Shown in pieces: positions 7,244 through 38,013 of a DNA stretch of 64,000 nucleotides; within the stretch, counting starts at the first letter, position 1; each line of letters starts with the position of its first letter. Position numbers and translations under genes: made by a program. Under the pieces are notes generated by a model. It saw only the letters and a program-made list of their open reading frames with translations, did no database searches and had not been told where the DNA came from. The stretch lies in contig DATKYQ010000040.1 of assembly GCA_035528415.1 (NCBI GenBank), positions 28,296-92,295 of the forward strand. The letters run 5' to 3'. The stretch is from Myxococcota bacterium (GTDB lineage: Bacteria; Myxococcota; B64-G9).

Positions 7244-7768
7244 ATGGAAATCGTCCGGCATTACCTCGAATTCTTTCTCAGCGAGGGCGAGGAGGCGTTT
7301 CTCGGGTGTTTCAACCACCCCTTTTTGCTTTACCCCGAGAAACACGCCGCCGCCGGCTTCGCGACCTACCATACGCGTATGGCCGATCGCGGGGAGGGCG
7401 CGCACATCGCGGGAAGCGGCAAGGAAATCAAGCAGTTCAAGGTATTGCCGCCCAACGCCGAGCTGGGCTCGAAATATCCGGCCAAGCTGCTTGTCGGGCG
7501 CAGTACCGAGCGCGAATTCTCGATCGACCACTCGACCGTCTCTAAGCGCCATGCCTTTCTGATGTTTGACGACGAAAAGAAAGCCTACAAGTTGGGCGAC
7601 GCTGGCTCCACCAACGGAACCTTCCTCAACGGCCAGAATGTCGAATCGGGAGAACCGGTATACGTCCGCGACGGCAACATCATCTCTTTCGGCGACTGTG
7701 ACTACATGTTCTTCTCGCCGCACGGCTTTGTCGAGTTGCTAAAACGTCTCAAGGCCGAGGAATCCTGA
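7244..7768 (+). CDS. FHA-domain protein
   Basis: C-terminal FHA signature GRSTEREFSIDHSTVSKRHAFL...GSTNGTFLNG. AAGGAG RBS. The 3' end overlaps the convergent VWA gene by 20 nt. Confidence 0.8.
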   Translation: MEIVRHYLEFFLSEGEEAFLGCFNHPFLLYPEKHAAAGFATYHTRMADRGEGAHIAGSGKEIKQFKVLPPNAELGSKYPAKLLVGRSTEREFSIDHSTVSKRHAFLMFDDEKKAYKLGDAGSTNGTFLNGQNVESGEPVYVRDGNIISFGDCDYMFFSPHGFVELLKRLKAEES

Positions 7769-7859
7769 CAGCGCGCTTCTTACCCGCTACTGCAGCAAGA
7801 AGAAGCAGGAGCAGCCAAGCGGCCCCGCTGCCAGGCCGGCCGTGGGAACAGCCGCAGCC
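7749..7859 (-). other. MYXO-CTERM-like sorting signal of the VWA protein
   Basis: GCGCSHGRPGSGAAWLLLLLLAAVAGKKRAVRIPRP: a Gly-Cys signature, a hydrophobic helix and a basic cluster at the extreme C-terminus. Confidence 0.5.
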
Positions 7860-10376
7860 TTCAGATCCCGGTTCGCCTGAATCGGCGGCGGGTCCCTTGT
7901 CGGCTCCCCCGTCCAGCAGCGGTCCTTCGTCCGGGTTGCCGCCCTGATCCGCTGCCGCGTCGCCGGCGTCGGGGCCGGCATCCGTTCCCGCGTCCACGCC
8001 GCCGTCCGGCTCTTCCTCTACTGCGACGCAGTAGCCCTGGCTGCATTCGCTGCCGTCAGGACACTCGACGTTCCGGCAGGCATCGCCTATGCAACTTCCG
8101 TCGCTGCAGGCGGTTCCCACCGGGCAGTAGACGCCCTGGCAGGGATCCAGGGCACACTCTCCATCGATGCACACCTGTCCGGCCTGGCAGTTGCGCCCGG
8201 CGCACTGGCTTTCCACGCAGGCACCTTCCGAACAGACTTGATCGGGTGTGCAATCCGCGCAGGCTATCGGCAGACAATCTCCTTCGTGGCACCATGACTG
8301 GTCGTTACAGTCGATGCCGCTGCAGGGATCGGGCTCGCAGACGCCCTCTACACAATGGTTACCCGCCTGGCACTCGTGCCCGGGAGTGAAGCAATCCGCC
8401 GGCACGCAGATTCCCATGCGGCAGTATTCTTCGGGCTGACACTCGATCTGCTGTTCGACGCAGGTGTCGACGCAGTCGCCCCGCGCGTCACATTCTTCCC
8501 CGGCCGGGCAGTGTACACCGCAGCAGGCATCGGCCACGCACCAGCCATCGAGACAGGTCAAGTTGCCGGCGGGACATTCGCCTGAGCTGCAGGGCGAAGC
8601 GCACTGGCCGCACAGGCAAATATCGTATCCCTGGCACAGGCTGCCTTCGTCGGTGATGCCGTCGCAATCGTCGTCCAGCGAGTTGCACATCTCGGGCTCG
8701 GGCCGAATCTCGCCCGCGCAGTCAGACCAGCGTCCTTGGGGCGTGCACACCTCGGTGCCCTTTCTGCACTCGCCGGTATCCACACCGCACTCCCGGGTGT
8801 CTCCCGGGTTGCACTCGCCGCACTCGTCGTCCTGGCCGTCGATCAATCCGTCGCAGTCGTTGTCGATGCCGTCGTCGCAGATCTCCGGTGTTGCATTCTC
8901 GTCCGTCAGGCCGTCGCAGTCGTTATCGCGCCCGTCGCAGACCTCTTCAGAGCCCTGGTAACCGCCCTCGCACGGGCCCCAGGCACCGTCCTGGTCGCAG
9001 ATCGAGACACCCATCTCGCAATCGCCCTCGGAGGTTCCGCACTGTTTCTGCTGCCCGGGAAAACAACTGCCGCATTCGTCGTCCCAGAGATCGGTCAGAC
9101 CGTCGCAGTCGTTGTCTATGCCGTCGTCGCAAATCTCTTGGCCCAGCATGTCGGTGACGCCGTCGCAGTCGTTGTCCAGTGCGTCGCAGTTGATCTCCGC
9201 CATGGGATTCACTTCGCCGATACACTCGACCGAACCGCCGATGCACATCTTGTCGCCCGGCCGGCATTCACCCTCGTCGGTGTAGTATGGCGGCTGTTCT
9301 CCCCCGCTGTCGACGCCGCAGTCGTCGCCCATTCCAGGGAAACTCTCGTCCACTGACAGGTTGCAGTTGTCGTCCCGGCCGTTGCACACTTCGGTGGCTC
9401 CGGGATTTATGGCCGAGGCGGTAGCCGCAGAGCAGCCGGCCATCGACTCGTTGCCGGTATCGCAGCAGTCGGAACATTGGTTATAGGTGTCGCCGTCCAG
9501 GTCGGGAAAGCCGTTGTCTATTGTGCCGTCGCAGTCGTTGTCCAGCCCGTCGCAGACCTCGGGCGTGGCCACGATCTGGGCGTTGCATATGACGCCGTTG
9601 TGGTTGGCGTTGCAGACGTAAACCCCCTGGCCGGTGCAGCCGCCCTGCACGATCTCGCAGGGCGTGCCTTTCAGCGGCCAGTCCTCGTCTATCTGCGCGT
9701 CGCAGTCATTGTCCTTGTCGTCGCAAAGTTCCACCAGCGCCTCGTTGATGATCTGGTCCATGGCGTTTTGCAAATCGGCCTGGTTGTCTGCCTGGTGGTA
9801 GCTCCCGGTGTGCCCGGCGGCAGCGATGTTGTTGAGCACCGTCGGGTTCGCACCGCTGCCGAAACCGATCACGAAGGTCTTGATTCCGGTGGTGTAGAGG
9901 TCCTGCGTGGAGGCCACCGGGTCGCTGCTCGTGTTATCGGCACAGGTGTCGTCACCGTCGCTGACCAGCATAATGAAGTTGCGCCGGTCGGGATCTTTCA
10001 GCTGGCGGTACTGGTTGAGCCCCATCAAGGTGGCCGCCATGGGTGTGTTGCCATTGGCCCCGGCCGCGCTCATGGCGCTGGTGATGGCGGCGGCGGTGTT
10101 GTCTCCTACGTCGACCTGGATGCTGCCGGCACCGCAGTCGTTGTCCGAGGGGAACATGTCCAACCCGAAGCGCAGCTTGGCGCCGTAGTTGTTAAGGACA
10201 AACTGAATCGCGTTCTGCGCCTGGGTCCATTTGGTGCCCTGCATGCTGCCGGAACGATCGAGGACGATCATCATGTTGGGCTTCTCGCAGGCCGGCTGCG
10301 CCATTGCAGGCGCGGCGGCGCACAGTACGGCCACGGCCAGCGCCACGGCCTGAATAATCGCGTTGTGCTTTTTCAT
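7749..10376 (-). CDS. Exported VWA-domain protein with MopE/LDL-A-like Cys-rich repeats, EGF-like Cys stalk and MYXO-CTERM-like tail
   Basis: Start moved to ATG 10376 (AAGGAGG upstream, signal peptide MKKHNAIIQAVALAVAVLCAAAPAMA, ATGA overlap with the upstream stop). MIDAS motif LDRSGSM. Repeated C-x-DG-x-DNDCDG-x-x-DE modules. C-terminal GCGC, hydrophobic helix and KKR. Confidence 0.85.
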   Translation of the reverse strand: MKKHNAIIQAVALAVAVLCAAAPAMAQPACEKPNMMIVLDRSGSMQGTKWTQAQNAIQFVLNNYGAKLRFGLDMFPSDNDCGAGSIQVDVGDNTAAAITSAMSAAGANGNTPMAATLMGLNQYRQLKDPDRRNFIMLVSDGDDTCADNTSSDPVASTQDLYTTGIKTFVIGFGSGANPTVLNNIAAAGHTGSYHQADNQADLQNAMDQIINEALVELCDDKDNDCDAQIDEDWPLKGTPCEIVQGGCTGQGVYVCNANHNGVICNAQIVATPEVCDGLDNDCDGTIDNGFPDLDGDTYNQCSDCCDTGNESMAGCSAATASAINPGATEVCNGRDDNCNLSVDESFPGMGDDCGVDSGGEQPPYYTDEGECRPGDKMCIGGSVECIGEVNPMAEINCDALDNDCDGVTDMLGQEICDDGIDNDCDGLTDLWDDECGSCFPGQQKQCGTSEGDCEMGVSICDQDGAWGPCEGGYQGSEEVCDGRDNDCDGLTDENATPEICDDGIDNDCDGLIDGQDDECGECNPGDTRECGVDTGECRKGTEVCTPQGRWSDCAGEIRPEPEMCNSLDDDCDGITDEGSLCQGYDICLCGQCASPCSSGECPAGNLTCLDGWCVADACCGVHCPAGEECDARGDCVDTCVEQQIECQPEEYCRMGICVPADCFTPGHECQAGNHCVEGVCEPDPCSGIDCNDQSWCHEGDCLPIACADCTPDQVCSEGACVESQCAGRNCQAGQVCIDGECALDPCQGVYCPVGTACSDGSCIGDACRNVECPDGSECSQGYCVAVEEEPDGGVDAGTDAGPDAGDAAADQGGNPDEGPLLDGGADKGPAADSGEPGSEGCGCSHGRPGSGAAWLLLLLLAAVAGKKRAVRIPRP

Positions 10377-12397
10377 GACCGGCCCTCCTTCTTTCGTCCA
10401 CGACGTCGCTTCCGGCGTTTGCCAAAGACGACCATCCCCAGGCCGCCCCCTACCACGTGCAGCGGAACCAGGTCTTTCATGGCCAGGTTGCGGCAGCTGC
10501 ACTCGCTGTCGTCGCCGTCGGTGTCGTTGTCGCAGTCATTATCGACGCCGTCGTTGCAGGCCTCCGTCTGGGGACGCCCGGCCACTGCATTGCAGCGCGT
10601 GCCGGTGCCGTTGTCGGTGCAAACGATGTATCCGCGGCTCAGGCAGCCGCCTTGGCCGGCCTCGCAGTTGTTTCCGAGGCCGCTGAAGCCCTCGTCAGTG
10701 TTGCCGTCGCAGTTGTTGTCGTAGTAGTCGCAGAGCTCCGTCTCGGGCTGGTGCGCGTAGCACTGGCTGGGCGAACCGCTCACACAGATGCGGTAGCCCG
10801 TGTCTCCGCAGGGACCCGTGCAGGGCTCGATCCAGCCCTCGTCGGTTCGCCCGTCACAGTCGTTGTCGAGCCAGTCGCAATCTTCTAAGGAACCAGCAGG
10901 CGCGACCGCATCGCAGACCTGCTGGATGCCGTCTGCCGAGCAGACATAGTGACCCTGGGTAAAGCACTCGCCGACGCCGGCGCTGCAGGGCAGGCCGACA
11001 TAGGGGAAATTCTCGTCCACGTTGAGATCGCAGTTGTTGTCGATGCCGTCGCACAACTCTGCGCTGGGCGGGATATCCTCGGCGTTGCAAACCAGTTGGC
11101 CGCCGCCGGGGCTGCAGACCATCACGCCCTCGGCGTAGCACGGGCCCTGCCCCTTGGAACAGGCTGTCCCGACGCCCGGGAAATCTTCGTCCGTCTCGCC
11201 GTCGCAGTCGTTGTCCAGCCCGTCGCAGGCCTCGGCAAAACCCTGTCCCGGTTGTTTCTGCGAACACTCCGTGCCGCTCCCGTTCGCCAAGCAGACCATC
11301 ACGCCCGGCCGGGCGCAGATTCCCAGGCCCACCTGGCAGCCGTCCATAAGATCAGCAAAGTCTTCGTCGATCTGGCTGTCGCAGTCGTTGTCCTTCCCGT
11401 CGCACAACTCGTTTACCGGCCCCTGGGCTCCCTGGCACGGCCCCCAGTGGCCCTTGTCACAGGTGCGTGTGCCGACCCGGCACTCTCCGGTGTCGTCGCC
11501 GCACGATTCGAACACCCCGTCGAGACATTCACAGCCCTCGTCCGTCAGGTGATCGCAGTCGTTGTCCAGTCCGTCGCATGTCTCGTCCTCGGGCATGCCT
11601 CCACCCTCGCAGGCGCCCCATACGCCCTGATGACAGTTCTGGATGCCGGCATAGCAGATGCCCACGTTCAGGCCGCAAGGGCGCTTATCGGCATCGCAGA
11701 GACAACCGTTGTCGACAGAGCCCTCGCAGTCGTTGTCCAGCCCGTCCTCGCACACCTCGTCCTCGGGCGGCGTTCCACCAAGGCAGCCGCTCCAGTGCCA
11801 ATCGCCGCCATCGTCTGCGCAGTTTTGCGCGCCCGGCGTGCACTCGCCCAGGCTCGATCCGCAGGAACGCGAGTCACCCTGGTTGCAGTCGCAGCCGTCG
11901 TTGACGGCGCCGTTGCAGTCGTTGTCCAGGTCGTCAGTACAGTTCTCTGCGTCCTCGGGCTGGTGACCGCCCTGACATTCACCCCACTGGCCGTCTGAGC
12001 AGGTGGAGACGCCCTTCGAACAGACACCGACGTCGGTGCCGCAGGGCTTTTCCTCGCCGCTGTTGCAGGGGCAACCCTCGTCGGTATCACTGTCGCAGTC
12101 ATTATCGGCCCCGTCACAGGCCTCGTCCGCCCCGGGAAAAATATCCGCCCGGTTGTCGTTGCAGTCTGTGCAGTCGGCGCAGCCTTCGCGAAGGTCGCAG
12201 AAACCGTCATGATCGAGATCGGTGCAATTGGGTTTGACGATGCATTCACCGTCCCGGCAGACGTAACCGGTCGCGCAGTCGGTACTGGAGTTACAGCGCG
12301 GCTGCGCGTCGTCGGACCCGACGACGGAACTACCGCATCCGGCAGTGAGCGCCGAAAAAACAACTAAACGAATCAAGCCCAATGATAGCCTTGTCAT
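10373..12397 (-). CDS. Cys-rich repeat lipoprotein (about ten 55-60 aa MopE/LDL-A-like modules) with C-terminal anchor
   Basis: Lipobox LTAGCGS. Repeats of the type (E)xCDGxDNDCDxxxDE...C..G.G.C...G...C. C-terminus CSC, then the hydrophobic GGGLGMVVFG and KRRKRRRGRKK. Confidence 0.8.
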   Translation of the reverse strand: MTRLSLGLIRLVVFSALTAGCGSSVVGSDDAQPRCNSSTDCATGYVCRDGECIVKPNCTDLDHDGFCDLREGCADCTDCNDNRADIFPGADEACDGADNDCDSDTDEGCPCNSGEEKPCGTDVGVCSKGVSTCSDGQWGECQGGHQPEDAENCTDDLDNDCNGAVNDGCDCNQGDSRSCGSSLGECTPGAQNCADDGGDWHWSGCLGGTPPEDEVCEDGLDNDCEGSVDNGCLCDADKRPCGLNVGICYAGIQNCHQGVWGACEGGGMPEDETCDGLDNDCDHLTDEGCECLDGVFESCGDDTGECRVGTRTCDKGHWGPCQGAQGPVNELCDGKDNDCDSQIDEDFADLMDGCQVGLGICARPGVMVCLANGSGTECSQKQPGQGFAEACDGLDNDCDGETDEDFPGVGTACSKGQGPCYAEGVMVCSPGGGQLVCNAEDIPPSAELCDGIDNNCDLNVDENFPYVGLPCSAGVGECFTQGHYVCSADGIQQVCDAVAPAGSLEDCDWLDNDCDGRTDEGWIEPCTGPCGDTGYRICVSGSPSQCYAHQPETELCDYYDNNCDGNTDEGFSGLGNNCEAGQGGCLSRGYIVCTDNGTGTRCNAVAGRPQTEACNDGVDNDCDNDTDGDDSECSCRNLAMKDLVPLHVVGGGLGMVVFGKRRKRRRGRKKEGRS

Positions 12398-12464
12398 TAC
12401 AGATCCTCTAAGAATCAGTAAAATGAGATTCTGTTACTACTCTAGTGTAAGAGGATGAAACCAG

Positions 12465-14321
12465 TCAACCTGGAAAACCGGCTCTATCGGGGTCTACGAT
12501 CTCGAGCCACTTGAACCAAATGGGATGATGTTCCTGATACCAGTGGAGAACTTCCAGCAACACCTCTTGGCCCTTTCTGGAAATCACCTCGGATGGGATG
12601 CGGTCGAAGTGGACACGAATGGTCTGTTTGGCGGTGTATTCCAGCGCCTCCGAACACAGCGTCTGCAATTCGTTTCGAATTCGGCCGGAGTCTGAGATCT
12701 TCACCGGCCGGATATGGAAGTCCTCGCCCCAGATGAAACGGATCAGCAGCGGATTGAAGACCAGCCGTCCTTCACGTGGACGCTCCATCAGCCGCAAGGT
12801 GAAGCTGATACGCTTGTCTCCCCGGCGGCTGGACAGGCGCACGGTCACCCGGTAGGTGCTTGCAGTCAGTTGTGTAACCCCCGGGGCCCCGGTGTATGGA
12901 TCGGGCTGCATGTAACCCACCAGGGAAATGACGTCCCAGCGTTTCTCTGGAAAGAAATCATCGGCGCGGATGACACGTTTTCCAAGCTGGATGCCGGCGT
13001 CGCGCGCCTCGCAAATCAGCCGGTGGTAGAGATCGACGGTTGCGGTGTCCGGTGTGTTTCCGGTTATAGCCGCGAGACGCGCTGGAAAGTCATCGGCCTC
13101 CACATCCAGGCCCATGATCTTCTGTTCCTGCCTGTATGAGAGATCGAAGCGGGAAGTGAAGACGGCTAGCGAGGCGTCCAGCCCCAGCACCGGGGCCAGG
13201 CTGACCGCCTGCATGGCCTCGGCCGAGGCCGCGTAGCCGTCGCAGATGAAAACATGGGTGCCTCCGTCCGCGTCTTGCCAGCTCCCCACACTGTAGTTGG
13301 GAGCGTAAGTGCCCGACTCGGTGAAGGCCTCCATTCCGCTGGGCATCTTCCAGCCGTCGTCCACCAGGTGCACTCCCAGCGCCTCCCATTCCTCCCATAA
13401 CTTTCCGATGCGTCCGACGCGACCCTTGCCACGCAACGTCCAGACATGGATGTCCTCGCGGCGGATGCCGGGATAAGTCGCTTCGATGGCTTCAACGACC
13501 AGAGCGCGGGGAGTGCTGTAATCGATCAGCACCGAGCGCTCGCTGGCCTTATCGACCACGGCCTGGGGCAAGAACAGGCTGCCCATGTAGCCCTCGTAGG
13601 GCCGGGAGATGCACAGCGGCTGGTTGAACAGGTGTAATACGGTCATCGGGCCGGTATCGCGGCCCATGGCGAAGCGCGAGGTGTTTTCCAGGGTATCGAT
13701 GGCCGCGCCCCAGACCGTCAGCCCGGCGCTCTTGACCTCGTCGTAGAACTGGTCGAAACGGTAGTCGGGCTCGTTGAGCATGCGGGTGACCCGTTGATCC
13801 AGCCATTGGGAAACCTGCGGGCGGGCGTAGACGCGGCCGAATCCGAGTTGGGGGTTGGAGCCCATCTCTTGTGTCTCACCCGATTTGGGCATCAGTCCTT
13901 CGCCCAGGCTGACCATGATGGCGTGATTCTCGGGCAGGTAGCGCGAGGCGAACCAGAGGCTCTCGCTCATGGCGTAGGCGGAGATGGCGTCTGCGTCCTT
14001 CTTGACCTGGTTGAGGTAGGCCTTGTCCTGCCCTTTCCCCTCACCGAAGCGCCCGTAAAGCTTGGTGCCCAGAGCGGTAACCGCTGCGGTCATGGCCATC
14101 AGCCGCTCCATGCGGATATCCAGGAAAGAAATCTCGCGGGAGCCTTTCTGGCTGGGCTCTCCCCGCAGCCACTCTACCTCGATGTCTTCCAGTCCCAGGT
14201 GCAGTCGGTTCAGAATAGGCCGCGTGTCGAAGAACCACTGTGCGATACGATCTTGCTTGTCTTTCTGCTCTGTTGCTAAGACCATGAGATCCTCCACAGC
14301 CGGTTGAGAATATTTCTTCAT
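12465..14321 (-). CDS. Cytoplasmic protein with a divergent GlpX / class II fructose-1,6-bisphosphatase-like core plus N- and C-terminal extensions
   Basis: No signal peptide. By-eye collinearity with E. coli GlpX:
- KKDADAISAYAM vs NTADGAAVNAM
- AIMVSLGEG vs TIVIGEGE
- GAAIDTLENTSRFAMG vs DIAVDPIEGTRMTAMG
- TLRGKGR...LGVHLV vs ILAKPRH...LGVRVF
- ICDGYAASAEAMQA vs IGGAPEGVVSA
The gene call is solid and the function is tentative. Confidence 0.55.
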   Translation of the reverse strand: MKKYSQPAVEDLMVLATEQKDKQDRIAQWFFDTRPILNRLHLGLEDIEVEWLRGEPSQKGSREISFLDIRMERLMAMTAAVTALGTKLYGRFGEGKGQDKAYLNQVKKDADAISAYAMSESLWFASRYLPENHAIMVSLGEGLMPKSGETQEMGSNPQLGFGRVYARPQVSQWLDQRVTRMLNEPDYRFDQFYDEVKSAGLTVWGAAIDTLENTSRFAMGRDTGPMTVLHLFNQPLCISRPYEGYMGSLFLPQAVVDKASERSVLIDYSTPRALVVEAIEATYPGIRREDIHVWTLRGKGRVGRIGKLWEEWEALGVHLVDDGWKMPSGMEAFTESGTYAPNYSVGSWQDADGGTHVFICDGYAASAEAMQAVSLAPVLGLDASLAVFTSRFDLSYRQEQKIMGLDVEADDFPARLAAITGNTPDTATVDLYHRLICEARDAGIQLGKRVIRADDFFPEKRWDVISLVGYMQPDPYTGAPGVTQLTASTYRVTVRLSSRRGDKRISFTLRLMERPREGRLVFNPLLIRFIWGEDFHIRPVKISDSGRIRNELQTLCSEALEYTAKQTIRVHFDRIPSEVISRKGQEVLLEVLHWYQEHHPIWFKWLEIVDPDRAGFPG

Positions 14322-14425
14322 ATCAAGCTTTTCCGCCTGGTGCCGCGTTTCAGAGCCAAAAGCGCCAGCAGTAACATTGCCAGCACCCAGCCCTTACTGC
14401 CTTCGCTCGAACTGCAGCCGCAGCC
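14318..14425 (-). other. MYXO-CTERM-like sorting signal of the BNR protein
   Basis: GCGCSSSEGSKGWVLAMLLLALLALKRGTRRKSLI. Confidence 0.5.
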
Positions 14426-17209
14426 CGGCGACCCTTTTCCGTCCAGGTCGTAGGCCGGGCTGTCACCGTCGCCGTCAATGCCGCCGTCCGGCAAGTCGTC
14501 AGTCGCGGCCTGGTCGCCACCGTCTTGGCCGGCGTCAAATCCACCGTCACGATCTTCCCGGGGCACCTCGCAGGTGCCCGCACGACATTGCGTGCCCTGC
14601 GGACAGGCTACATACAGGCAGGCGTCGGGCACACAGACGCCCCTGTCGCACTCGTAGCCCTGTGAACAGTAGACCTGCTCGCAGGGGTCGGCAGAGCACT
14701 GGTTGTCGATGCATAGCTGCCCCGCCGCTGCGCAGGACATCCCGGCGCACAGGCTGCGCAGACACTCACCATCTTGACAGATTTCGTCGGGCCGGCAATA
14801 GCCGCAGGCCGGGGACAGACACTCACCCCCGCGACAGTATGTGCCCGGGGCACACGAGGTTGCATGACAAGTGTCCGTCGCGCACGCGTCCCCGACGCAG
14901 ATCTCCGGGCTGGGACACTCGTGGCCTGTAGTTTGACAGTCTTCTACGACACACTCACCCAGGCGGCACTCGTAGCCCGCTTGGCACTCAATTCCTTGAA
15001 GCTCACAGACATCCGCGCAGCTTCCTTCGGCCGTGCATGATTGGCTGCTCTCGCAGCGCACTCCGCAGCAGGGCGAGACACACCAGCCGCCGCGGCAAAC
15101 GCGATCCTGCGTCGGACAGGTCTTGTCGGGACAGGCTTGAGCGCAGACGCCGCAGACACACTGCTGGTCGCCGCCGCACAACGCGCCGTCGTCTGTCAGG
15201 CCGTTGCAGTCGTTGTCCTTGCCGTCGCAGACCTCCGAGCCTGCGTCATCCGGCGCGGGACAGCTCTCGATCCCCCCGGCGCACAAAGTCTCGCCGGGAC
15301 AAGCCGGGATGCGGCACTCCTGCGGGCTGAACTCCTCGTCCGTCTCGCCGTCACAGTCATCGTCCAGCCCGTTGCACGGGTCGTGCTGAGCGCATCCTCC
15401 GCCGGAAGTGAACAGGATCGCGCCCCCGGCGCCCGCCGCCCAGCCGCTCTCGGCATCCACAAAGTCAATACCCAAGATAGCCTGAGTGAATGGGACATAC
15501 TGCTCAAACCATGTCAGGCCCCCATCCCTGCTCGACAATATCAATCCGCCCTCTCCGGCGGCGTAACCCCTCTCAATCGTCGGAAAAGATACAGCGGACA
15601 AATCATCCTCAGTACCAGTCGAGACCGTTTGCCAATTTCCGCCGCCGTCTGAACTGGCCAGCATGACACCCCGCCGGCCGACTATCCAGCCGTGCTGACC
15701 GTCGGCAAAATCGACCGCCAGCAGGTCTTCTTGAGTGCCGCTGTCCAAAAGCTGCCAGCTGTTTCCCCCGTCGCTTGTCGAAATCAGGGCGCCCCCGTTG
15801 CCCACAGCCAGGCCCGTCTGCGCATCGATGAAGAAGACACCTCTCAGCCACTGGGAGGTCGCCGATTGCTGAGCTGCCCAATGCAGCCCGCCATCGCTGG
15901 TGTGCCAGATTACTCCAGCATATCCAACCGCCCAACCGTTGCTCGCGTCGGGAAAGTGGGCACCGTAGAAAGCCTGGGGCGACTCCATAACTTGCACCTG
16001 CCAGCTCGCGCCTCCGTCCGCGCTTGCCAGTATGCGCCCACCACCGAACTCCGAGGCGCCCAGTGCCCAGACGTGCTGCCCGTCGACAGCCGCTAGTGCC
16101 GAAATGCTGCCCGTGGTCGGTGACTCAAGCCGGCTCCAGGTGTTGCCGCCATCGTTCGTTGACCAGATGGCGCCCTGGTCTCCCGCCGCCCAGCCGTGCT
16201 GCGCGTCAACAAATGCTATCGCCCTGATCCAGGGCGCGGGGGGATCCGATAGCAATTCCCAGTTCGCTCCGCCATCGACGGTTTGCAGCACGACTCCGCC
16301 GGTGCCGCTTACCCAGCCGCGTTCGGCGTTTTCGAACCAGACGGCTTTCAGATTAACCGTGGTACCCGATTCGCGCTTCTCCCAGTTTTGGCCGCCGTCA
16401 GCGCTGGCGAGCAAAGTGCCCTGGTCACCCACGACAACCACGTGCGCGAGGTCGGGTTGCGCCACCGCGGTCAGGTTGCGAATGGTCAACTTGGCCAGAT
16501 CGTCGTTGCGCTGAAAGCTCTGGCCGTCTGTTGTCAGCGTTATCGTCCCGTTGTTGCCGACCGCGATGACGTGAAAGGCATCAGTGAGTGTCACGTCGTG
16601 CAGAGTGTAGTAGGTGTCGCCACTGTGCCGCGTCCAGTGCTGTCCGCCGTCCGCGGTCACCAGCACCGAGCCGCCCTCGCCCACCGCTGCTCCCTGCAGG
16701 CCGTCTATGAACTTTATCGCCCGCAGATCCTGGTAGGCTCCCGTTTGCTGGGCGATCCAGGCCCGTCCGGCGTCGATCGTGTGCAGCACCGTTCCCGCGT
16801 CGCCAGCAGCCCAGCCCGCCCGCGGGTGCACGAACGAGATGCCGTAGAGATCAGTGTCGACTCCCGACCAGAAGGGATGCCAGTGCTTGCCGCCGTCGCT
16901 GGTACCCAAAACCAGGCCATCATTGCCAACCACCCAACCGGTCATGCCATCCAGCATGGCCAGCGCCCGCAGGTCGGGCTGCCCCGAGACACTGCCCACC
17001 ATCCAGCTTGCGCCCCCATCCAGCGTGTAGACTGATGCCCCGTCCAGGCCCACTGCCAGGCCCCTCTCGCCTGCCAGGTGTATAGCCAGCAGGTCGTGAC
17101 CATGGGTTCGCGGCTGCTGCCACTCCCAACCCCCGGCTCGGATTTCGTTCGTCGAAAATAAGAAAGCCCAGCAGGAAAAAATGACGGCTGCTGTCCAACG
17201 TTGGGCCAT
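14318..17209 (-). CDS. Exported BNR/Asp-box (Ycf48-like) multi-propeller protein with Cys-rich stalk and MYXO-CTERM-like tail
   Basis: Signal peptide. Twelve S/T-x-D-x-G-x-x-W Asp-boxes (TSDGGKHW, TADGGQHW, SADGGQNW, TVDGGANW, and others). Then CNGLDDDCDGETDE and CDGKDNDCNGLTDD modules, an EGF-like stalk, and the GCGCSSS tail. The stop overlaps the next start (ATGA at 14318..14321). Confidence 0.85.
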   Translation of the reverse strand: MAQRWTAAVIFSCWAFLFSTNEIRAGGWEWQQPRTHGHDLLAIHLAGERGLAVGLDGASVYTLDGGASWMVGSVSGQPDLRALAMLDGMTGWVVGNDGLVLGTSDGGKHWHPFWSGVDTDLYGISFVHPRAGWAAGDAGTVLHTIDAGRAWIAQQTGAYQDLRAIKFIDGLQGAAVGEGGSVLVTADGGQHWTRHSGDTYYTLHDVTLTDAFHVIAVGNNGTITLTTDGQSFQRNDDLAKLTIRNLTAVAQPDLAHVVVVGDQGTLLASADGGQNWEKRESGTTVNLKAVWFENAERGWVSGTGGVVLQTVDGGANWELLSDPPAPWIRAIAFVDAQHGWAAGDQGAIWSTNDGGNTWSRLESPTTGSISALAAVDGQHVWALGASEFGGGRILASADGGASWQVQVMESPQAFYGAHFPDASNGWAVGYAGVIWHTSDGGLHWAAQQSATSQWLRGVFFIDAQTGLAVGNGGALISTSDGGNSWQLLDSGTQEDLLAVDFADGQHGWIVGRRGVMLASSDGGGNWQTVSTGTEDDLSAVSFPTIERGYAAGEGGLILSSRDGGLTWFEQYVPFTQAILGIDFVDAESGWAAGAGGAILFTSGGGCAQHDPCNGLDDDCDGETDEEFSPQECRIPACPGETLCAGGIESCPAPDDAGSEVCDGKDNDCNGLTDDGALCGGDQQCVCGVCAQACPDKTCPTQDRVCRGGWCVSPCCGVRCESSQSCTAEGSCADVCELQGIECQAGYECRLGECVVEDCQTTGHECPSPEICVGDACATDTCHATSCAPGTYCRGGECLSPACGYCRPDEICQDGECLRSLCAGMSCAAAGQLCIDNQCSADPCEQVYCSQGYECDRGVCVPDACLYVACPQGTQCRAGTCEVPREDRDGGFDAGQDGGDQAATDDLPDGGIDGDGDSPAYDLDGKGSPGCGCSSSEGSKGWVLAMLLLALLALKRGTRRKSLI

Positions 17210-17214
17210 GCCGA

Positions 17215-17565
17215 CTACTTTCCCTGCGGCTTGCCCAGGTAGCGCTCGACCACCCAGCGAATCAACTTCCGGGCGCCCTCGCTGATGTCTGTGAACCTGA
17301 CGGCAAAGCCTGAGGGATCCTGGCGCTGGTGCCAGACGACTTCGCCGCGAGCCTTGACCGGTGTGCTGACCAGGGGCAAGAACATCTCCATGTCTACCTG
17401 GGTCTCTTCGTCAAGCGGTTCTTCCGCCAGCAGGAAGGCCCCGCTGGCGCTGAGGTTGCGCGAATAGTAATGCCGCCCGCCGCTCTCGGTCTCGACGCGC
17501 ACGATGATCCCGATCGGGGCGCGCGGAGCCCTTCTTTTCTCGCTGTAGTCGATACCACCGGGCAT
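17215..17565 (-). CDS. PilZ-domain (c-di-GMP-binding) protein
   Basis: RRAPR (RxxxR) and NLSASG (D/NxSxxG) motifs at the expected spacing. 116 aa. The stop lies 5 nt before the BNR gene start. Confidence 0.85.
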   Translation of the reverse strand: MPGGIDYSEKRRAPRAPIGIIVRVETESGGRHYYSRNLSASGAFLLAEEPLDEETQVDMEMFLPLVSTPVKARGEVVWHQRQDPSGFAVRFTDISEGARKLIRWVVERYLGKPQGK

Positions 17566-17613
17566 AGATAATCCTTCAAGCCGGAACGCAAACCCGGCGA
17601 CTTGAGTGGAGTT

Positions 17614-17642
17614 ATCCTAGCTCCAAGGGATACAACTGTCAA
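17614..17642 (-). promoter_or_regulatory. Candidate sigma70-type promoter of the PilZ operon
   Basis: On the minus strand: TTGACA (17642..17637), a 17-nt spacer, then TAGGAT (17619..17614), about 50 nt upstream of ATG 17565. Sequence match only. Confidence 0.3.
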
Positions 17643-17728
17643 ACACGACTGGTTGTACGCTGGTCTTTTAGATTGACCGTTGACCAGCCGGTCTGTCAAA
17701 CTGGACACTAACCAGAAGGTGGTCTTGG

Positions 17729-18250
17729 ATGATCAGGTTTTCGCTCTTGCTGCTCGCGGTCTTCGTTATGGCCTTATTTTCCGCCTGCGGGCTTGATGTC
17801 GTCGAGTTCAGCGTCGTCGAGGAGGGTCTGGTCGGCATGGCCGGCGTCAATGTTCCCGGCCTGGGCAACTTCGGCTCCAGCCTGGACAACGCCCTCTCAG
17901 ACCAGGGAGTCGACCCGGGCGACGTCGACTCGATGCGCGTACTCACAGGCTCGCTCGAGATGACCACCCAGGGCGGCTTGACGAAGGATCTGTCCTTCTT
18001 CGAGAAGCTGGAGTTCAACCTGGGTGCCGACGGCATGCAACCCACCCGCTTGGCCTTGGCTGCGCAGCCCATAGCCGCGGGGACAAAACACGTCGATCTG
18101 GACGTCGACTCCCGACTGGATCTGAAACCCTACCTGGATGCCGGCAACATGCTTGTAGACGTAGACGCCATGCTGAACCCACTACCGCCCGACGCCGTGG
18201 GCATCAAGCTGATCTTCAAAGTCAGAGTCGACGTGAACGTCATCAAGTAG
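17729..18250 (+). CDS. Hypothetical lipoprotein
   Basis: Lipobox LFSACG. 173 aa, with no recognisable domain. Confidence 0.6.
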   Translation: MIRFSLLLLAVFVMALFSACGLDVVEFSVVEEGLVGMAGVNVPGLGNFGSSLDNALSDQGVDPGDVDSMRVLTGSLEMTTQGGLTKDLSFFEKLEFNLGADGMQPTRLALAAQPIAAGTKHVDLDVDSRLDLKPYLDAGNMLVDVDAMLNPLPPDAVGIKLIFKVRVDVNVIK

Positions 18251-18271: not shown

Positions 18272-20119
<1,848 letters not shown>

Positions 20120-20149
20120 ATCATCCTCCTTTGTCGAATTGTCATATCA

Positions 20150-21133
20150 TCAGGCGCCGGTGCCGTAAGCGTCAAGGGCAATCCGCGCCTGTTTATTAAG
20201 TTTTGTCCTCAACTCCTCGGGCGCTTCTATTGTCGCCTGTCCCCCGAACGAGGCCACGTAAGACAAGACGTACTCATCAGAGACGTCGTACAACTTGGCG
20301 ATCACGCCGCCCTCCGGCGTCCGCTCGACATAGTCGTCGCCCCAGTGCTCGCGAACCCAGCGTGCCACCGCGGGGGTGAAGGAGATAACCACCTCGCGTC
20401 CGCCGCGCTCGGGAACGGTCAGGTTCTGCTCGACGAAGGCGGCCACGTCGAAATCGGCGGGAAAGTCGAAGATGCGTTCCGTCATCCCGGCCTGCATGAT
20501 CCGCGACAGCCGAAAAACGCGCTCGGCCTTGCGCGTGGTGCAATAGGCCGCCAGGTACCACAACCCCAGGTGGTGATGCAGACCATACGGTCGTATGGTG
20601 CGATCCGTCGCCTCTCCCCTGCTGGCCGAGTAGTATTGCAGCTCCAGCTCCCGGCGCTCGTCTATCGCCCGCCTGAGCGTGCTCAGGAACTTGTTCTCAG
20701 TCTCGCCCAGCAACAACATGAAGCGTCCGGCTAACTCGTCGAACAGCCTGCGGGCATCCTGGGGCAAAGAGGCGGCAATCTTCTCCACTGCTATCCCGAC
20801 CGCCACGGCCGCCTCGCCCATCAGCTTTTGATCGGTGAACATACGCGCCGCCGTAGCCAGTGCCAGTGCCTCGAACACCGTCAGACCCGGCGGTTTTTCA
20901 AGCGACTGGTGCAGATCGACGAAAACACGGCCGCCTTCCTGGTAGATGTCTATCATGTCGTTCGGCAGAAAGGGCGGCCTGCCAACCATCAGCAGGAAAT
21001 CGATTTCCTTCATCAGTTCTTGTTCGGAGATTCCCAGGCGCCGGGTCAGATCTTCGACGGTCACGCCCCGGTGCCTGACCACGTAAGGCACTAAAAAAAG
21101 AAGTGTGCGCAGCCTCTCGTGGAGATCGGACAT
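20150..21133 (-). CDS. HTH-WYL-WCX transcriptional regulator (PafC-like)
   Basis: N-terminal wHTH (VTVEDLTRRLGISEQEL). WYL core RTIRPYGLHHHLGLWYLAAYCTTRKAERVFRLSRI. TGATG junction with the upstream paralog. Confidence 0.8.
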   Translation of the reverse strand: MSDLHERLRTLLFLVPYVVRHRGVTVEDLTRRLGISEQELMKEIDFLLMVGRPPFLPNDMIDIYQEGGRVFVDLHQSLEKPPGLTVFEALALATAARMFTDQKLMGEAAVAVGIAVEKIAASLPQDARRLFDELAGRFMLLLGETENKFLSTLRRAIDERRELELQYYSASRGEATDRTIRPYGLHHHLGLWYLAAYCTTRKAERVFRLSRIMQAGMTERIFDFPADFDVAAFVEQNLTVPERGGREVVISFTPAVARWVREHWGDDYVERTPEGGVIAKLYDVSDEYVLSYVASFGGQATIEAPEELRTKLNKQARIALDAYGTGA

Positions 21134-22164
21134 CAGCCAGCACCGCCTGCGGCACTGCTCGCCGCGACATTCAAAAGGGCCGCCTTGACTTTATCCACGA
21201 TTTCGGGCGGCGAAATCACCCTGGCCCGGTGCCGGTGCCAGAGTATCGTCGGCAACAGACCGTCTGAGAAGGTCACAGACAGGCGCACTATCAGGGCCTC
21301 GCCGTCCTCCTCGACGTATTCTACCGACTTGCCCAATTCGGCCACCGCTGCCTGGGCACCGGGCGGTTCAAAGCGCAGTTTGACCTCCAGCGGATCATGC
21401 GCCTTGATCTCCCACGGATGCCGGGCGACATGATCCGCGAGGCTGAAGTCTTTCGGAAACTCGAAGTCGGGAGACTTGGGTTTGAAACGGTTGACATCGA
21501 GGCCCGTGATGCGATCGACGTGAAACACCCGCATGGCCTCGCGCAAGTGGCAATACCCGACCAGGAACCATTTACCCTGAACGTAGATCAATCCATAGGG
21601 GTCGACGTCGCGTTTGGTTTTTTCGTCTTTCCACAGCGAATGGTAAAAGATGATTGTTCTTTTCCTTTCGCTGATCGCCCTGTGCAATGAAGCCAGGTAC
21701 TCCTTGCGTCTCAGGGCACTGGCATCTCCTAAGTTGTTTGCGGGCATGGTGCGCAGCACGGGCTGCCTGACGAACTCTCCCTCGCCGGTCGCGAAACCTA
21801 TTTTGTTCAAGGCCATGACCAGGTCCCGCGAGAACGGTGAGCCGTCCATCTGCAACACCGCGCTGCCGGCCAAGTATAGCATGGCCATCTCCTCGGGTGC
21901 CAAATCGATGGGCGGCAGCGAGTAGCCTTCCCTGTCGATCATGTAGCCCCCACATTCGACTTCATCTTCCTGCATGTAACGCAGCGGCACTCCCAGTTCG
22001 ATGATATCCGCCTTGTCCCGCTCGAATTTGCGGGCGATCGACTCATCCTGCCCGTCTCGGTAGTCTTCCGGAAAGGCATTCTGTATCTCGGCAAAAGTCA
22101 CCGGCCGGCGGGCGTTCAGCAAGAAGGCGATCTGGTCGAGGAGTCGCTCAGCCTTCTTCATCAT
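21133..22164 (-). CDS. HTH-WYL-WCX transcriptional regulator (PafB-like)
   Basis: Start taken at MMKKAERLLDQIAFLL (22164). WYL core RDVDPYGLIYVQGKWFLVGYCHLREAMRVFHVDRI. The longer track ORF (to 22374) is Arg/Pro-rich and overlaps the upstream gene. Confidence 0.8.
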   Translation of the reverse strand: MMKKAERLLDQIAFLLNARRPVTFAEIQNAFPEDYRDGQDESIARKFERDKADIIELGVPLRYMQEDEVECGGYMIDREGYSLPPIDLAPEEMAMLYLAGSAVLQMDGSPFSRDLVMALNKIGFATGEGEFVRQPVLRTMPANNLGDASALRRKEYLASLHRAISERKRTIIFYHSLWKDEKTKRDVDPYGLIYVQGKWFLVGYCHLREAMRVFHVDRITGLDVNRFKPKSPDFEFPKDFSLADHVARHPWEIKAHDPLEVKLRFEPPGAQAAVAELGKSVEYVEEDGEALIVRLSVTFSDGLLPTILWHRHRARVISPPEIVDKVKAALLNVAASSAAGGAG

Positions 22165-22930
22165 AAGACCCCGCCGTCGTGTGTTTCCAGCGGCCTTTGA
22201 TCCTGCCGGAACGATCAACGTGCAGCCCTTCCGGAAGAACAGCGTCCACTTTCTTCCTGTAGCCCTTGACCGTCCAACCGAGCCCGGACAAGGCCTCGGC
22301 AATAGCCGCCCGCAGCCTGGCCGGCGTCTCCTCGTCGACCAGAAGCTGCAGCACGGCCTCGCGAGCCGCCTCATCCTGCCTGCAGGTTAAAGCCGAGAGG
22401 GCCTCCAACTGCACCTCGTCACGGTGATCGCGCAGGAAGGGAATCAAGGCCGGAACCACGTCGGGGTGGTCGTACTCGGCCAGTTGCGAAACCAGCAACA
22501 CCTTGCGCTCGGGCTCGCGGGTGTAACTGGTGCCCAGGTTATTGAGCGCCCGTTCGATAACCTCGACCGCTTCCTGCGGTTCGGCGACGGTGCTAAGCAG
22601 CTTCAGAGGCCAGGTTATCGGCACGTTGGCCGAGTCCTTGCGGTTCAGGTAAGCCTCCACGGCAGGTATCACTTCACTTCCGAAACCTACCAGGATGTCG
22701 AAGACGTTCTGCTTCTCATCCTCGTCCTTGATGCTGGGATCGACATTTACCATGAAGCGCTCCAGCAGCCCCTGACAACCCTCCCGACCGCCCAACTCCT
22801 TGAAGTACTGCACCGCCCGGAAACGGTCTTCACCCTGCCCGAACCTGTTCTTGATGTGTTTCCGATGGCGCTGGTAATCCCGGCGGTGTTTCTTGCGGCG
22901 TAGCTTCTCCATCCACCCGGAGAAGCTCAT
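22148..22930 (-). CDS. HEAT-repeat protein
   Basis: Start ATG 22930 (MSFSGWMEKLRRKKHRR), in an ATGA overlap with the upstream lipoprotein stop. HEAT/PBS-lyase-like repeats (DVVPALIPFLRDHRDEVQLEALSAL, PARLRAAIAEALSGLG). Confidence 0.6.
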   Translation of the reverse strand: MSFSGWMEKLRRKKHRRDYQRHRKHIKNRFGQGEDRFRAVQYFKELGGREGCQGLLERFMVNVDPSIKDEDEKQNVFDILVGFGSEVIPAVEAYLNRKDSANVPITWPLKLLSTVAEPQEAVEVIERALNNLGTSYTREPERKVLLVSQLAEYDHPDVVPALIPFLRDHRDEVQLEALSALTCRQDEAAREAVLQLLVDEETPARLRAAIAEALSGLGWTVKGYRKKVDAVLPEGLHVDRSGRIKGRWKHTTAGSYDEEG

Positions 22931-23565
22931 TGGTTTACCTTCCACGCCAATGACACGCTCCCGAAGGCGCTGGCCATCTTGATCGTCAGGCTGCCGACGT
23001 CCGGATCGATCACGGGCTTCCCGTTTGTTTGATCCAGCGGGAAGATGACCAGGTACGATTTTCCGAAAGTGCTGGAGAACGGGAAAAAGGCCATCAGGTT
23101 CGGCCCGCGCCCGCGGAACTTGTGGATGCTCAGCGGCAGGACACCCAATTGGTTCGTTCCGCCCCAGAGCGTCATTCTCCAGACGGCGTCCTTTTCGTCC
23201 AGGTTGTTCCACTCCTCGCGCGGGATGTCGGCGAAGACGAAAAACTCGTGGCCGCGGCCTACCGAGGTGGCAATCATTTCCAGGTCGCTGTCGACCTGCC
23301 CGGGATCGGCGCCGAATATCTTCAGGTACTGCGCTCCGAAGGCCTCGCGAAGCTTGGGGGCCAGGTAGGTCGCGTGAACCAGCAGCATGTTATCCAGGCT
23401 GTAATTCACCCGGCCGGATATCGTCCACCTGCGCAACTGCTTATCGTATTCTGTGTCGAGCTTTTGCGGCCCACGCATGTTGGGCTGGGGCGCACAGGAG
23501 CACAAGGCCACAGCAAATACAAAGCAGGCCTTCGGGATCTTCGATAGTTTTATACGCTGCGTCAT
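22927..23565 (-). CDS. Hypothetical lipoprotein
   Basis: Lipobox ALCSCA. 212 aa, with no recognisable domain. Confidence 0.6.
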   Translation of the reverse strand: MTQRIKLSKIPKACFVFAVALCSCAPQPNMRGPQKLDTEYDKQLRRWTISGRVNYSLDNMLLVHATYLAPKLREAFGAQYLKIFGADPGQVDSDLEMIATSVGRGHEFFVFADIPREEWNNLDEKDAVWRMTLWGGTNQLGVLPLSIHKFRGRGPNLMAFFPFSSTFGKSYLVIFPLDQTNGKPVIDPDVGSLTIKMASAFGSVSLAWKVNQ

Positions 23566-36940: not shown

Positions 36941-38013
36941 TGCCTGCCTCCAGCGAGGATCTTCCAACGGTAGAAACCTTCAAAACGAGGATTGTCCGGA
37001 CGCACGCGCCAGCGATCGTCCTTGTGTGTGCGCAGGGCAGTAAGTGTCACCAAGCGCACTTCCCCAGGCTCGCTGGCAGCCAGGCGACCGGTGTGATAAA
37101 CGACCCGCGGGCCGCCCGGTCGATCGAAGCGATCGAGGAGAATCATTGAATGCATCGGCTCGGGCTGCCTGTCCGGGTCGCGGAAAAACAGCAAGTCGCC
37201 GGGAAGAGCGTCTTTTACGTCCTTGGAGACGAAAACCGTGTTGTATTCCCAAAGGGCGCGCGCGGAGGCGGCCGCGGAGAAGTCTCGCACGACGTCGCCC
37301 GGAGCTTCCGGGCGCCTCGCATTCACCCTGAAGAGTCGATCTCCGATGATAGGGACTTGCGGGTAGTTATAGCGTCGCACGTCCTCAGAAGTTGCCTGGT
37401 GCAGGTACGGCACTCCGGAAAGCCAATTCGCATCGTGCTTTCTCAGCGCTTCCTTGTAGGCGAAGCGAATCAGACCGGCGCAGTCGTGATGGATCTCGGC
37501 CCAACGCGGATCCGGTCTGTAAAACTGCGCCTCGGCGATGGCCACAAACCAAGACCTGAAGGCACGCCGGTCCATAGCGTCGTTCAACTCGAGCTGATCC
37601 GGGATACCGTCGCCGTCGCGATCGCCGCTGTGGGACACAAGCTGCAGCCTGCGCTCCGTCGTGCGACCGCCCTCGTCGATCGCCAGGATCACCTCCCCGG
37701 GGTCTCCCTCGGCGCGCAAGCCCAACTCGAGAAGGGCCGGGCCCTCGCCGCGCGACGCGCGGCCGAGAAGCTTTACCCTGTCTGCGCCCTGGACAATGGC
37801 CACGCGGATCGTTTCGGGAAAGAACGGAACCGGGCTGCCGTAGACGTTGGTTCGCGACCAGACCAACTTGGCGCCGGCGCCGGAGTTGGCCGGCAAGCTG
37901 TCTGGAAAAAGTGTCAGCCTTCTTTTCACCGGAAGCATGACGCTGGCGGCAAAGACAAACAGCATCAGCAGCGCTCCCAGTGCGAGCGCCCAGATTTCCC
38001 GAGCGCGCCTCAT
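36937..38013 (-). CDS. DUF1175 / YfaT-like protein with NlpC/P60-like Cys-His signature
   Basis: N-terminal TM or signal segment. HHDCAGLIRFAYKEAL and PGDLLFFRDPDRQPEPMHSMILL resemble the NlpC/P60 catalytic Cys and His contexts. Position immediately upstream of A2M. Confidence 0.5.
   Translation of the reverse strand: MRRAREIWALALGALLMLFVFAASVMLPVKRRLTLFPDSLPANSGAGAKLVWSRTNVYGSPVPFFPETIRVAIVQGADRVKLLGRASRGEGPALLELGLRAEGDPGEVILAIDEGGRTTERRLQLVSHSGDRDGDGIPDQLELNDAMDRRAFRSWFVAIAEAQFYRPDPRWAEIHHDCAGLIRFAYKEALRKHDANWLSGVPYLHQATSEDVRRYNYPQVPIIGDRLFRVNARRPEAPGDVVRDFSAAASARALWEYNTVFVSKDVKDALPGDLLFFRDPDRQPEPMHSMILLDRFDRPGGPRVVYHTGRLAASEPGEVRLVTLTALRTHKDDRWRVRPDNPRFEGFYRWKILAGGRQ

Follow-up and report, generated by a model that had tools for sequence, protein, structure and literature searches.

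A probable mosaic of PilZ, surface-protein and long GlpX-like genes in a Myxococcota bacterium

A 64,000-nucleotide stretch of a Myxococcota genome (GTDB lineage Bacteria; Myxococcota; B64-G9; NCBI GenBank assembly GCA_035528415.1, contig DATKYQ010000040.1, positions 28,296 to 92,295 of the forward strand), here called the window, carries a run of five minus-strand genes. They encode a PilZ protein, a secreted beta-propeller protein, a protein resembling the phosphatase GlpX, a cysteine-rich lipoprotein of the MopE type and a protein with a VWA domain. A preliminary description of this DNA had read the five genes as one PilZ-led operon and had proposed, as one hypothesis, a surface adhesion or matrix module gated by cyclic di-GMP (c-di-GMP). 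Our comparison indicates that the locus is probably a mosaic of three independent pieces: a conserved PilZ-propeller pair, a MopE-VWA unit found in a subclade, and a GlpX-like gene that stands among other neighbours in many other genomes. The GlpX-like protein itself most likely belongs to an unrecognised family of long GlpX-type phosphatases, as judged from its predicted structure and aligned active-site residues.

Results

Gene content of orthologous loci

The five open reading frames (ORFs) are present in the ORF listing at the coordinates first given for them. All five genes occur together in only one relative, the ~90% identical locus L003 (the same contig as L076). Loci L075 and L157 hold four of them, and L077, L156 and L159 hold two. 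L075, from a Myxococcales metagenome-assembled genome (MAG) with ~92% DNA identity to the window, has the order PilZ-propeller-MopE-VWA and then an FHA gene, without the GlpX-like gene; L157 has the same order with a split MopE gene. L159 and L077 read PilZ-propeller-FHA, L156 continues from the pair into three unrelated genes, and L158 reaches the end of its contig after the pair. The GlpX-like gene is missing from all five deeper orthologous loci (L077, L156, L157, L158 and L159). For the clustering of ORFs in the neighbourhood, shadow ORFs in alternative frames of the high-GC gene were filtered out.

The GlpX-like gene was found at 68 loci in species-representative genomes, and L003 is the only one of these with any of the other four genes within 10 kb. 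In 65 other genomes the PilZ, propeller, MopE and VWA partners are all absent and the neighbours are of unrelated, varying kinds. They include IS481 on an Eisenbacteria chromosome, Ser/Thr kinases in one Acidobacteriota genome, GlnS and LpxD in Vicinamibacterales, and MacB-type and PolA genes.

The L075 locus retains a trace of the GlpX-like gene. There, 100 bp (12874-12973) stand in place of window positions 14333..12481, and the propeller ORF ends, immediately before its stop codon, in ...LKRGTRRSVKWLDIVDP, which adds the final ~9 residues of the GlpX-like protein (SVKWLDIVDP; KWLEIVDP in the window) in frame behind the Arg-rich MYXO-CTERM tail. This fusion points to a clean deletion of the GlpX-like gene. 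The gene was not found elsewhere in the L075 MAG, which may be incomplete.

On the evidence of these neighbourhoods the five genes are a lineage-specific juxtaposition and not one conserved system. The preliminary proposal of a single PilZ-led system does not stand: its gene order is kept only in L003/L076, and two outcomes that the description had itself named as contrary to it were found. The c-di-GMP-gated five-gene module is likewise unsupported, the GlpX-like gene being deleted in L075 and placed elsewhere with other neighbours. The most parsimonious history looks like a PilZ-propeller core, a MopE-VWA addition in a subclade, and a gain of the GlpX-like gene in the common ancestor of the window, L075 and L076 that was followed by its loss in L075.

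Several other features of the GlpX-like neighbourhoods were recorded. Transposases lie near the gene in two cases, an IS481 family member on the Eisenbacteria chromosome (L071, 8998-9939) and an ISAZ013 DDE transposase on an Acidobacteriota contig (L160, 12861-13280), which fits a context-hopping gene. Ser/Thr-kinase-like genes occur within 450 nt in four lineages, mostly on the same strand (L005; L009; L014/L016/L021/L036/L038/L039; L065, which equals L161; and L072); this proximity may be chance in kinase-rich genomes or a weak functional lead. Two candidate contexts were discarded. An ABC-ATPase cluster that seemed to recur across phyla reflected generic ABC homology at differing positions and orientations, and adjacency to GlnS/LpxD is limited to one Acidobacteriota clade.

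The PilZ-propeller pair

The PilZ gene (17215..17565, minus strand) encodes 116 amino acids (aa), and the domain first assigned to it was recovered with PF07238 at an E-value of 2.6e-16 (60.2 bits, cut-off 22.5). The protein has the two motifs for c-di-GMP binding intact, R11xxxR15 and N37xSxxG42, and so do 31 of 31 orthologues, which were found among 5.8 billion proteins at 63-100% identity. The protein is presumed to be a single-domain c-di-GMP receptor. Against the paralogous gmx_TIGR02266 family it scores below threshold (53.6 bits, cut-off 68.7). A genome scan with PilZ recovered only two close relatives, and further loci came from the protein-database search.

The next gene (14318..17209, minus strand) encodes a 963-aa protein predicted to consist of a secreted tandem BNR/Ycf48-like beta-propeller, a Cys-rich stalk and a MYXO-CTERM anchor. 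It matches PSII_BNR with an E-value of 7.8e-52 (176.8 bits), and the earlier count of 12 Asp boxes was reproduced exactly for canonical boxes, which recur with a period of 41 aa and are accompanied by degenerate ones. With 185.3 bits against a cut-off of 326, the protein falls below the Ycf48 equivalog model (NF010237); by these scores it is a BNR propeller of the Ycf48 superfamily and not a Ycf48 orthologue. The MYXO-CTERM model TIGR03901 was matched by both the propeller protein (22.1 bits) and the VWA protein (20.3 bits), with a small margin over its cut-off of 20. Both tails have the tripartite form of a Cys motif, a transmembrane helix and an Arg-rich tail (GCGCSSS...LLLALLALKRGTRRKSLI and GCGCSHG...LLLLLLAAVAGKKRAVRIPRP, respectively), in agreement with the MYXO-CTERM-like ends that had been proposed for the two surface proteins.

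The propeller/MYXO-CTERM gene directly follows PilZ in 8 of 8 orthologous loci (the window, L075, L076, L077, L156, L157, L158 and L159), across which the identity is 66-100% for PilZ and 44-93% for the propeller orthologues. The two genes are separated by 5 nt in the window, and in the other loci they overlap or lie up to 15 nt apart. Judged by this retention of order, PilZ and the propeller gene are a conserved pair and the core of the locus. A literature search found no paper that links MYXO-CTERM with PilZ.

Upstream of the pair, L158 (2801-8969) and L159 (169-1158) carry a FecR-like gene directly before PilZ. L158 also has a hybrid histidine kinase with a GGDEF domain upstream of PilZ, a possible local source of c-di-GMP and an anecdotal hint.

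The MopE lipoprotein and the VWA protein

The 674-aa lipoprotein (10373..12397, minus strand) has 11.3% Cys, a lipobox (LTAGC) and MopE-type repeats recognised by PF11617 (E-value 2.8e-36). It had been described as a Cys-rich lipoprotein with ten modules; the repeats and the lipoprotein assignment were borne out, and the count comes to nine modules under the strict pattern C-D-x-x-D-N-D-C-D (9-10 MopE-type modules in all). Its C-terminus (10373..10500) combines the Cys motif SECSCRN, a hydrophobic segment and the polybasic tail KRRKRRRGRKK, and resembles a sorting tag, yet is missed by TIGR03901.

The 875-aa protein that follows (7749..10376, minus strand) carries a VWA head, eight MopE modules (E-value 9.1e-28), a Cys-rich stalk and the MYXO-CTERM tail. 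Its designation as a VWA protein is upheld by PF00092 (E-value 5.9e-13) and by the metal ion-dependent adhesion site (MIDAS) motif DxSxS, present as DRSGS. Secretion signals are present on the surface proteins. The Cys-rich stalks of the VWA and propeller proteins (7749..8900 and 14318..15400, both minus strand) are paralogous, with ~40% identity over the C-terminal ~400 aa. Short DNA repeats corresponding to the MopE modules cross-match between all three Cys-rich genes.

Among the 8 orthologous loci, the MopE and VWA genes were found only in the window, L075, L076 and L157. By this distribution they are an add-on unit restricted to a subclade.

Promoter-like sites and transcription units

A promoter-like site with the sequence TTGACA-17-TAGGAT, reported earlier upstream of PilZ, was located at 17614..17642 on the minus strand and scored 10/12 in our scan. 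Both of its hexamers are kept in L075, L076, L156 and L077, and the remaining intergenic DNA has diverged. A second site, TTGACT-18-TAGAGT (9/12), lies at 12439..12468 on the minus strand, upstream of the MopE lipoprotein gene. Its pattern GGTTGAC-17/18-TA(G/A)A(G/A)T is kept in the window, L075, L076 and the distant L157, where the MopE protein is ~60% identical. The conservation of this site before the MopE gene favours two transcription units over a single operon led by PilZ.

The TGA that ends the GlpX-like reading frame falls inside the -35 hexamer of the second site, which places the gene exactly between the end of the first putative unit and the promoter-like site of the second. None of 12 terminator-like sites in the terminator scan (7.6 +/- 2.4 expected) lies between cluster genes, and read-through is therefore possible. 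One hairpin with a T-run, terminator-like in form, lies at 17647-17665 on the plus strand, between the PilZ promoter-like site and a divergent 173-aa gene, upstream of the latter; it may be chance.

The junctions between the genes were largely as first described. The 5-nt gap between PilZ and propeller, the 67-nt spacer between the GlpX-like and MopE genes and the ATGA overlap of the MopE and VWA genes at 10376/10373 all held, and only the ATGA overlap proposed at 14321 is probably wrong. The likeliest start of the GlpX-like gene is 14285 (Met13), since gene callers and homologues of 594-624 aa begin there, skipping the upstream ATG, and a GGAGG sequence (14295..14291) lies 5 nt upstream. With this start the propeller/GlpX-like gap is 32 nt, and the gaps across the five genes are 5, 32, 67 and -4 nt.

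A widespread family outside the curated GlpX models

The GlpX-like gene (12465..14285, minus strand) encodes a protein of 606 aa that is predicted to be cytoplasmic. It has no match in Pfam or NCBIfam even at E=10, and phmmer and family-profile hmmsearch against all PDB sequences gave nothing meaningful. A HMMER scan of 1.84 billion representative proteins returned 281 matches, which fall into some ten full-length clusters, the most distant with 34% identity, and fragments; the same scan contained no sequence bridge from this family to GlpX. By these sequence models the protein falls outside the curated GlpX family (PF03320), and the nearest approach is made by two divergent family members with sub-threshold PF03320 matches at the catalytic motif (14.1 and 11.8 bits, cut-off 27).

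The family is large, with more than 2,700 homologous clusters at 90% identity. The best 120 of these clusters are 594-624 aa long, share 65-100% identity and have no Pfam domain, and those homologues among them that carry a name are all annotated as "hypothetical protein". The 68 genomic loci have 52-90% identity, and all are in MAGs. Hosts include Myxococcota, Bradymonadales, Eisenbacteria, Acidobacteriota (with Vicinamibacterales), Methylomirabilota/Rokubacteria, Desulfobacterota, Vulcanimicrobiota, UBP9, Gemmatimonadota and others, and identity is 58-71% across at least 8 phyla. No description of a new or long class of GlpX-like proteins was found in the literature.

Predicted fold and active site of the GlpX-like protein

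An AlphaFold model built with 27 homologues had a mean predicted local distance difference test score (pLDDT) of 84.7 and a predicted template modelling score (pTM) of 0.85, and shows the two-domain alpha/beta sandwich of the GlpX type. In a Foldseek comparison with the PDB, the top 24 matches were all class II fructose-1,6-bisphosphatases (FBPases), with E-values of 5e-13 to 4e-9, template modelling scores on the target of 0.71-0.81 and identities of 11-16%. They comprised GlpX of E. coli, M. tuberculosis and F. tularensis and the cyanobacterial FBPase/sedoheptulose-1,7-bisphosphatases (SBPases), and the next match was SuhB at an E-value of 0.27. Alignment of a diverse family alignment with E. 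coli/Francisella/Mycobacterium GlpX by hhalign gave a probability of 70.7% and an E-value of 3.8e-5 over GlpX residues 1-327. The name GlpX-like in the preliminary description was thus right at the level of fold or superfamily, though Pfam, NCBIfam and PDB sequence searches miss the relationship.

The active site of E. coli GlpX is formed by the metal ligands Asp33, Glu57, Asp85, Glu88 and Glu213, the catalytic Thr90, and Tyr119, Lys164 and Arg166 at the 6-phosphate (PMC5892879). In the hhalign alignment the metal ligands correspond to D99, E129, D197, E200 and E356 of the 606-aa protein, the catalytic residue to T202, and Tyr119 and Arg166 of the 6-phosphate triad to Y233 and R292. These eight mapped residues are invariant down to 34% identity, bar one suspect sequence. 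Lys164 aligns to V290, with an invariant R289 one residue away. Among the sugar-hydroxyl ligands, Asp186 aligns to D/E310 and Asp188, which contacts the fructose 4-OH, to Trp312; most family members have W at position 312, and the most divergent have E, D or G. The C-terminal domain of ~100 aa contains the invariant motif SDSGRIRNELQTLC. In a separate model of the C-terminal 110 aa, pLDDT exceeded 90 over most of the core, and Foldseek against the PDB found no match better than an E-value of 1.5.

From these models the 606-aa protein is most likely a long GlpX-type phosphatase of an unrecognised family, and its most likely substrate would be a sugar phosphate, which might be a bisphosphate such as fructose-1,6-bisphosphate (FBP) or sedoheptulose-1,7-bisphosphate (SBP). 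Given the Asp-to-Trp change and the extra domains, the protein should not simply be taken for an FBPase.

Borders and flanks of the locus

On the downstream side, a convergent gene for a 174-aa FHA-domain protein (7244..7768, plus strand; PF00498, E-value 1.3e-16) shares a 3' overlap of 20 nt with the VWA gene, just as originally reported. Its orthologues (65-71% identity) are convergent and stand directly past the last cluster gene in L077, L157 and L159. The upstream boundary is a divergent 173-aa gene (17729..18250, plus strand), in which a Pfam search found no domain and whose orthologues (51-69% identity) lie upstream of PilZ in L156, L077 and L157. By their recurrence the FHA and 173-aa genes are conserved borders of the locus.

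The window forms part of the JGI metagenome contig Ga0307380_10000178, and the genomes closest to it are uncultured Myxococcales MAGs. Synteny across the clade extends upstream (window 18272..23000, minus strand; L001, 2125-6014), with two WYL/PafC-like regulator genes, a 615-aa acyl-CoA dehydrogenase and the 173-aa gene, and downstream with def and a tRNA-synt_2 (EpmA-like) gene. Elsewhere in the window the ORF listing has several other large ORFs, among them one of 1543 aa (32336..36967, minus strand). A PADLOC search and a search of a plasmid collection gave no matches, and Rfam found no family over the whole window, hence no c-di-GMP riboswitch was detected.

Discussion

The locus is best explained as three pieces that would have come together in this lineage. 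In the first, a sigma-70-type promoter would drive the PilZ receptor gene and then the gene for the secreted propeller with its Cys-rich stalk and MYXO-CTERM tag, and PilZ may make the production, export or function of the propeller surface protein depend on the c-di-GMP level. In the second, served by its own promoter-like site, the MopE lipoprotein and the VWA/MopE/MYXO-CTERM protein most likely add adhesin-like surface proteins stabilised by calcium or other metal. MYXO-CTERM surface proteins such as TraA are lipidated, cleaved by myxosortase and displayed at the surface (PMC11980579), and by analogy the propeller and VWA proteins would be handled in the same way. The third piece, the GlpX-like gene, would have been gained in an ancestor of this genus-level clade between the first unit and the promoter-like site of the second, and then lost by deletion from one sister genome. 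It is probably transcribed by read-through from the PilZ promoter-like site, with no functional tie to the cluster. Its product would be a cytoplasmic metal-dependent phosphatase that most probably cleaves a sugar phosphate ester by the two-metal/Thr mechanism of GlpX.

Several points weigh against this interpretation. The comparison covers eight orthologous PilZ loci including the window, and all comparison genomes are MAGs. The promoter-like sites are consensus matches in sequence. The GlpX-like gene has neither a terminator nor an obvious promoter of its own and is kept in 2 of 3 genus-level genomes, so that a local functional link may exist. There is no known mechanism by which a stand-alone cytoplasmic PilZ protein acts on a surface protein. 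For the GlpX-like protein, homology to GlpX rests on the predicted structure together with a moderate hhalign probability: a first hhalign run with a shallow alignment (64-71% identity) was insignificant, with a probability of 0.12, and the value rose to 70.7% when members of 34-58% identity were added. A database search with E. coli GlpX contributed no further profile depth, as it returned only 81-96% identical, almost all enterobacterial sequences. The residue correspondence between E. coli GlpX and the 606-aa protein comes from the hhalign sequence alignment and not from three-dimensional coordinates.

Among other explanations, the best placed, which we still regard as doubtful, is that the 606-aa protein is a true gluconeogenic FBPase (or FBPase/SBPase), a long class II replacement for Fbp/GlpX whose housekeeping gene is at this spot by chance. 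The GlpX fold, the invariant metal ligands, catalytic Thr and Tyr/Arg of the 6-phosphate triad and the high identity across phyla fit this explanation, as does its solitary position among changing neighbours, a common situation for genes of central metabolism. Replacement of the fructose 4-OH ligand Asp188 by Trp312 speaks against it, and so do the deletion in L075, with no second copy found in that MAG, and the distribution of the gene, for which 68 of 68 genome matches are MAGs and none is an isolate, indicating a patchy rather than universal occurrence.

It is rather unlikely that PilZ and the propeller gene are merely syntenic, with no functional coupling, in what would be just a series of surface-protein genes peculiar to the lineage. 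Myxococcota have many PilZ domains, the present one is sub-threshold to gmx_TIGR02266, and all orthologous loci belong to one narrow clade with shared flanks (acyl-CoA dehydrogenase, 173-aa gene and FHA gene), points that count for simple synteny; the tight spacing, the common conserved promoter-like site and the fact that the pair stays joined while everything downstream of the propeller gene varies favour a coupling. A single c-di-GMP-gated surface adhesion or matrix module of all five genes, with the GlpX-like enzyme supplying or remodelling a sugar-phosphate precursor, is very improbable: the shared strand, the short gaps, the lack of a convincing intrinsic terminator between the genes and the order retained in L003/L076 are set against an order seen only at ~90% identity, an enzyme gene deleted in L075 and absent from L157, L077, L156, L158 and L159, 65 other enzyme-gene loci without all four partners, and a promoter-like site conserved within the run, ahead of the MopE gene.

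The mosaic interpretation can be placed beside known systems piece by piece. The 606-aa protein has its fold and catalytic residues in common with class II FBPase/GlpX (PF03320; PDB 3D1R, 6AYY, 7TXG, 3ROJ and 5A5L), a family of homotetrameric, Mg/Mn-dependent and Li-sensitive FBPases, but is 606 aa long against ~320-345 aa, with a 58-aa N-terminal extension, insertions that include ~55 aa between the GEG and DxxExT motifs, and an extra C-terminal domain of ~100 aa; it also carries Trp312 for Asp188 and scores below every Pfam/NCBIfam threshold. The two tagged surface proteins resemble TraA of Myxococcus xanthus (PMC11980579) in architecture (signal peptide, head, Cys-rich repeat stalk and MYXO-CTERM), and sorting by myxosortase and the type II secretion system would be expected. 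In place of a PA14 head, however, they carry a tandem BNR propeller and a VWA domain, respectively, and there is no TraB-like partner. With Ycf48/HCF136 and the BNR/Asp-box propellers (PF14870, PF02012) the propeller shares Asp-box blades at a 41-aa period, but it is tandem, fused to a stalk and an anchor, and comes from a non-phototrophic lineage. The PilZ protein is like stand-alone PilZ receptors (PF07238; gmx_TIGR02266 of Myxococcus) in its single domain with RxxxR and (D/N)xSxxG motifs, and differs in its conserved partner, a MYXO-CTERM propeller gene, a pairing without earlier description. Finally, the C-D-G-x-D-N-D-C-D modules and the DxSxS motif (D-R-S-G-S) are shared with proteins carrying the MopE-type putative metal-binding motif (PF11617) and with VWA/MIDAS adhesins, respectively; only in this clade are they combined with MYXO-CTERM and a lipoprotein partner.

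A bolder extension, which we advance tentatively and hold at somewhat less than an even chance, is that the 606-aa protein founds a 'long GlpX' family in at least 8 mostly uncultured phyla, an active metal-dependent phosphatase with a sugar pocket remodelled by the Asp-to-Trp change and a C-terminal domain without counterpart among solved structures, which would either represent a new FBP/SBP-type class or act on a substrate new to the fold, and that the PilZ protein and the MYXO-CTERM propeller together would be a new c-di-GMP-controlled display pair.

The five-gene "system" should not be treated as a unit. The PilZ-propeller pair offers a concrete case in which c-di-GMP may control MYXO-CTERM surface display. 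The GlpX-like family is broad, well conserved and unannotated; it is missed by Pfam, NCBIfam and PDB sequence searches and is placed beside class II FBPase by its predicted structure and residues. Should the protein prove to be an FBPase or SBPase, it would close annotation gaps in the metabolic reconstructions of many uncultured lineages; otherwise it would mark a new substrate for a well-studied fold.

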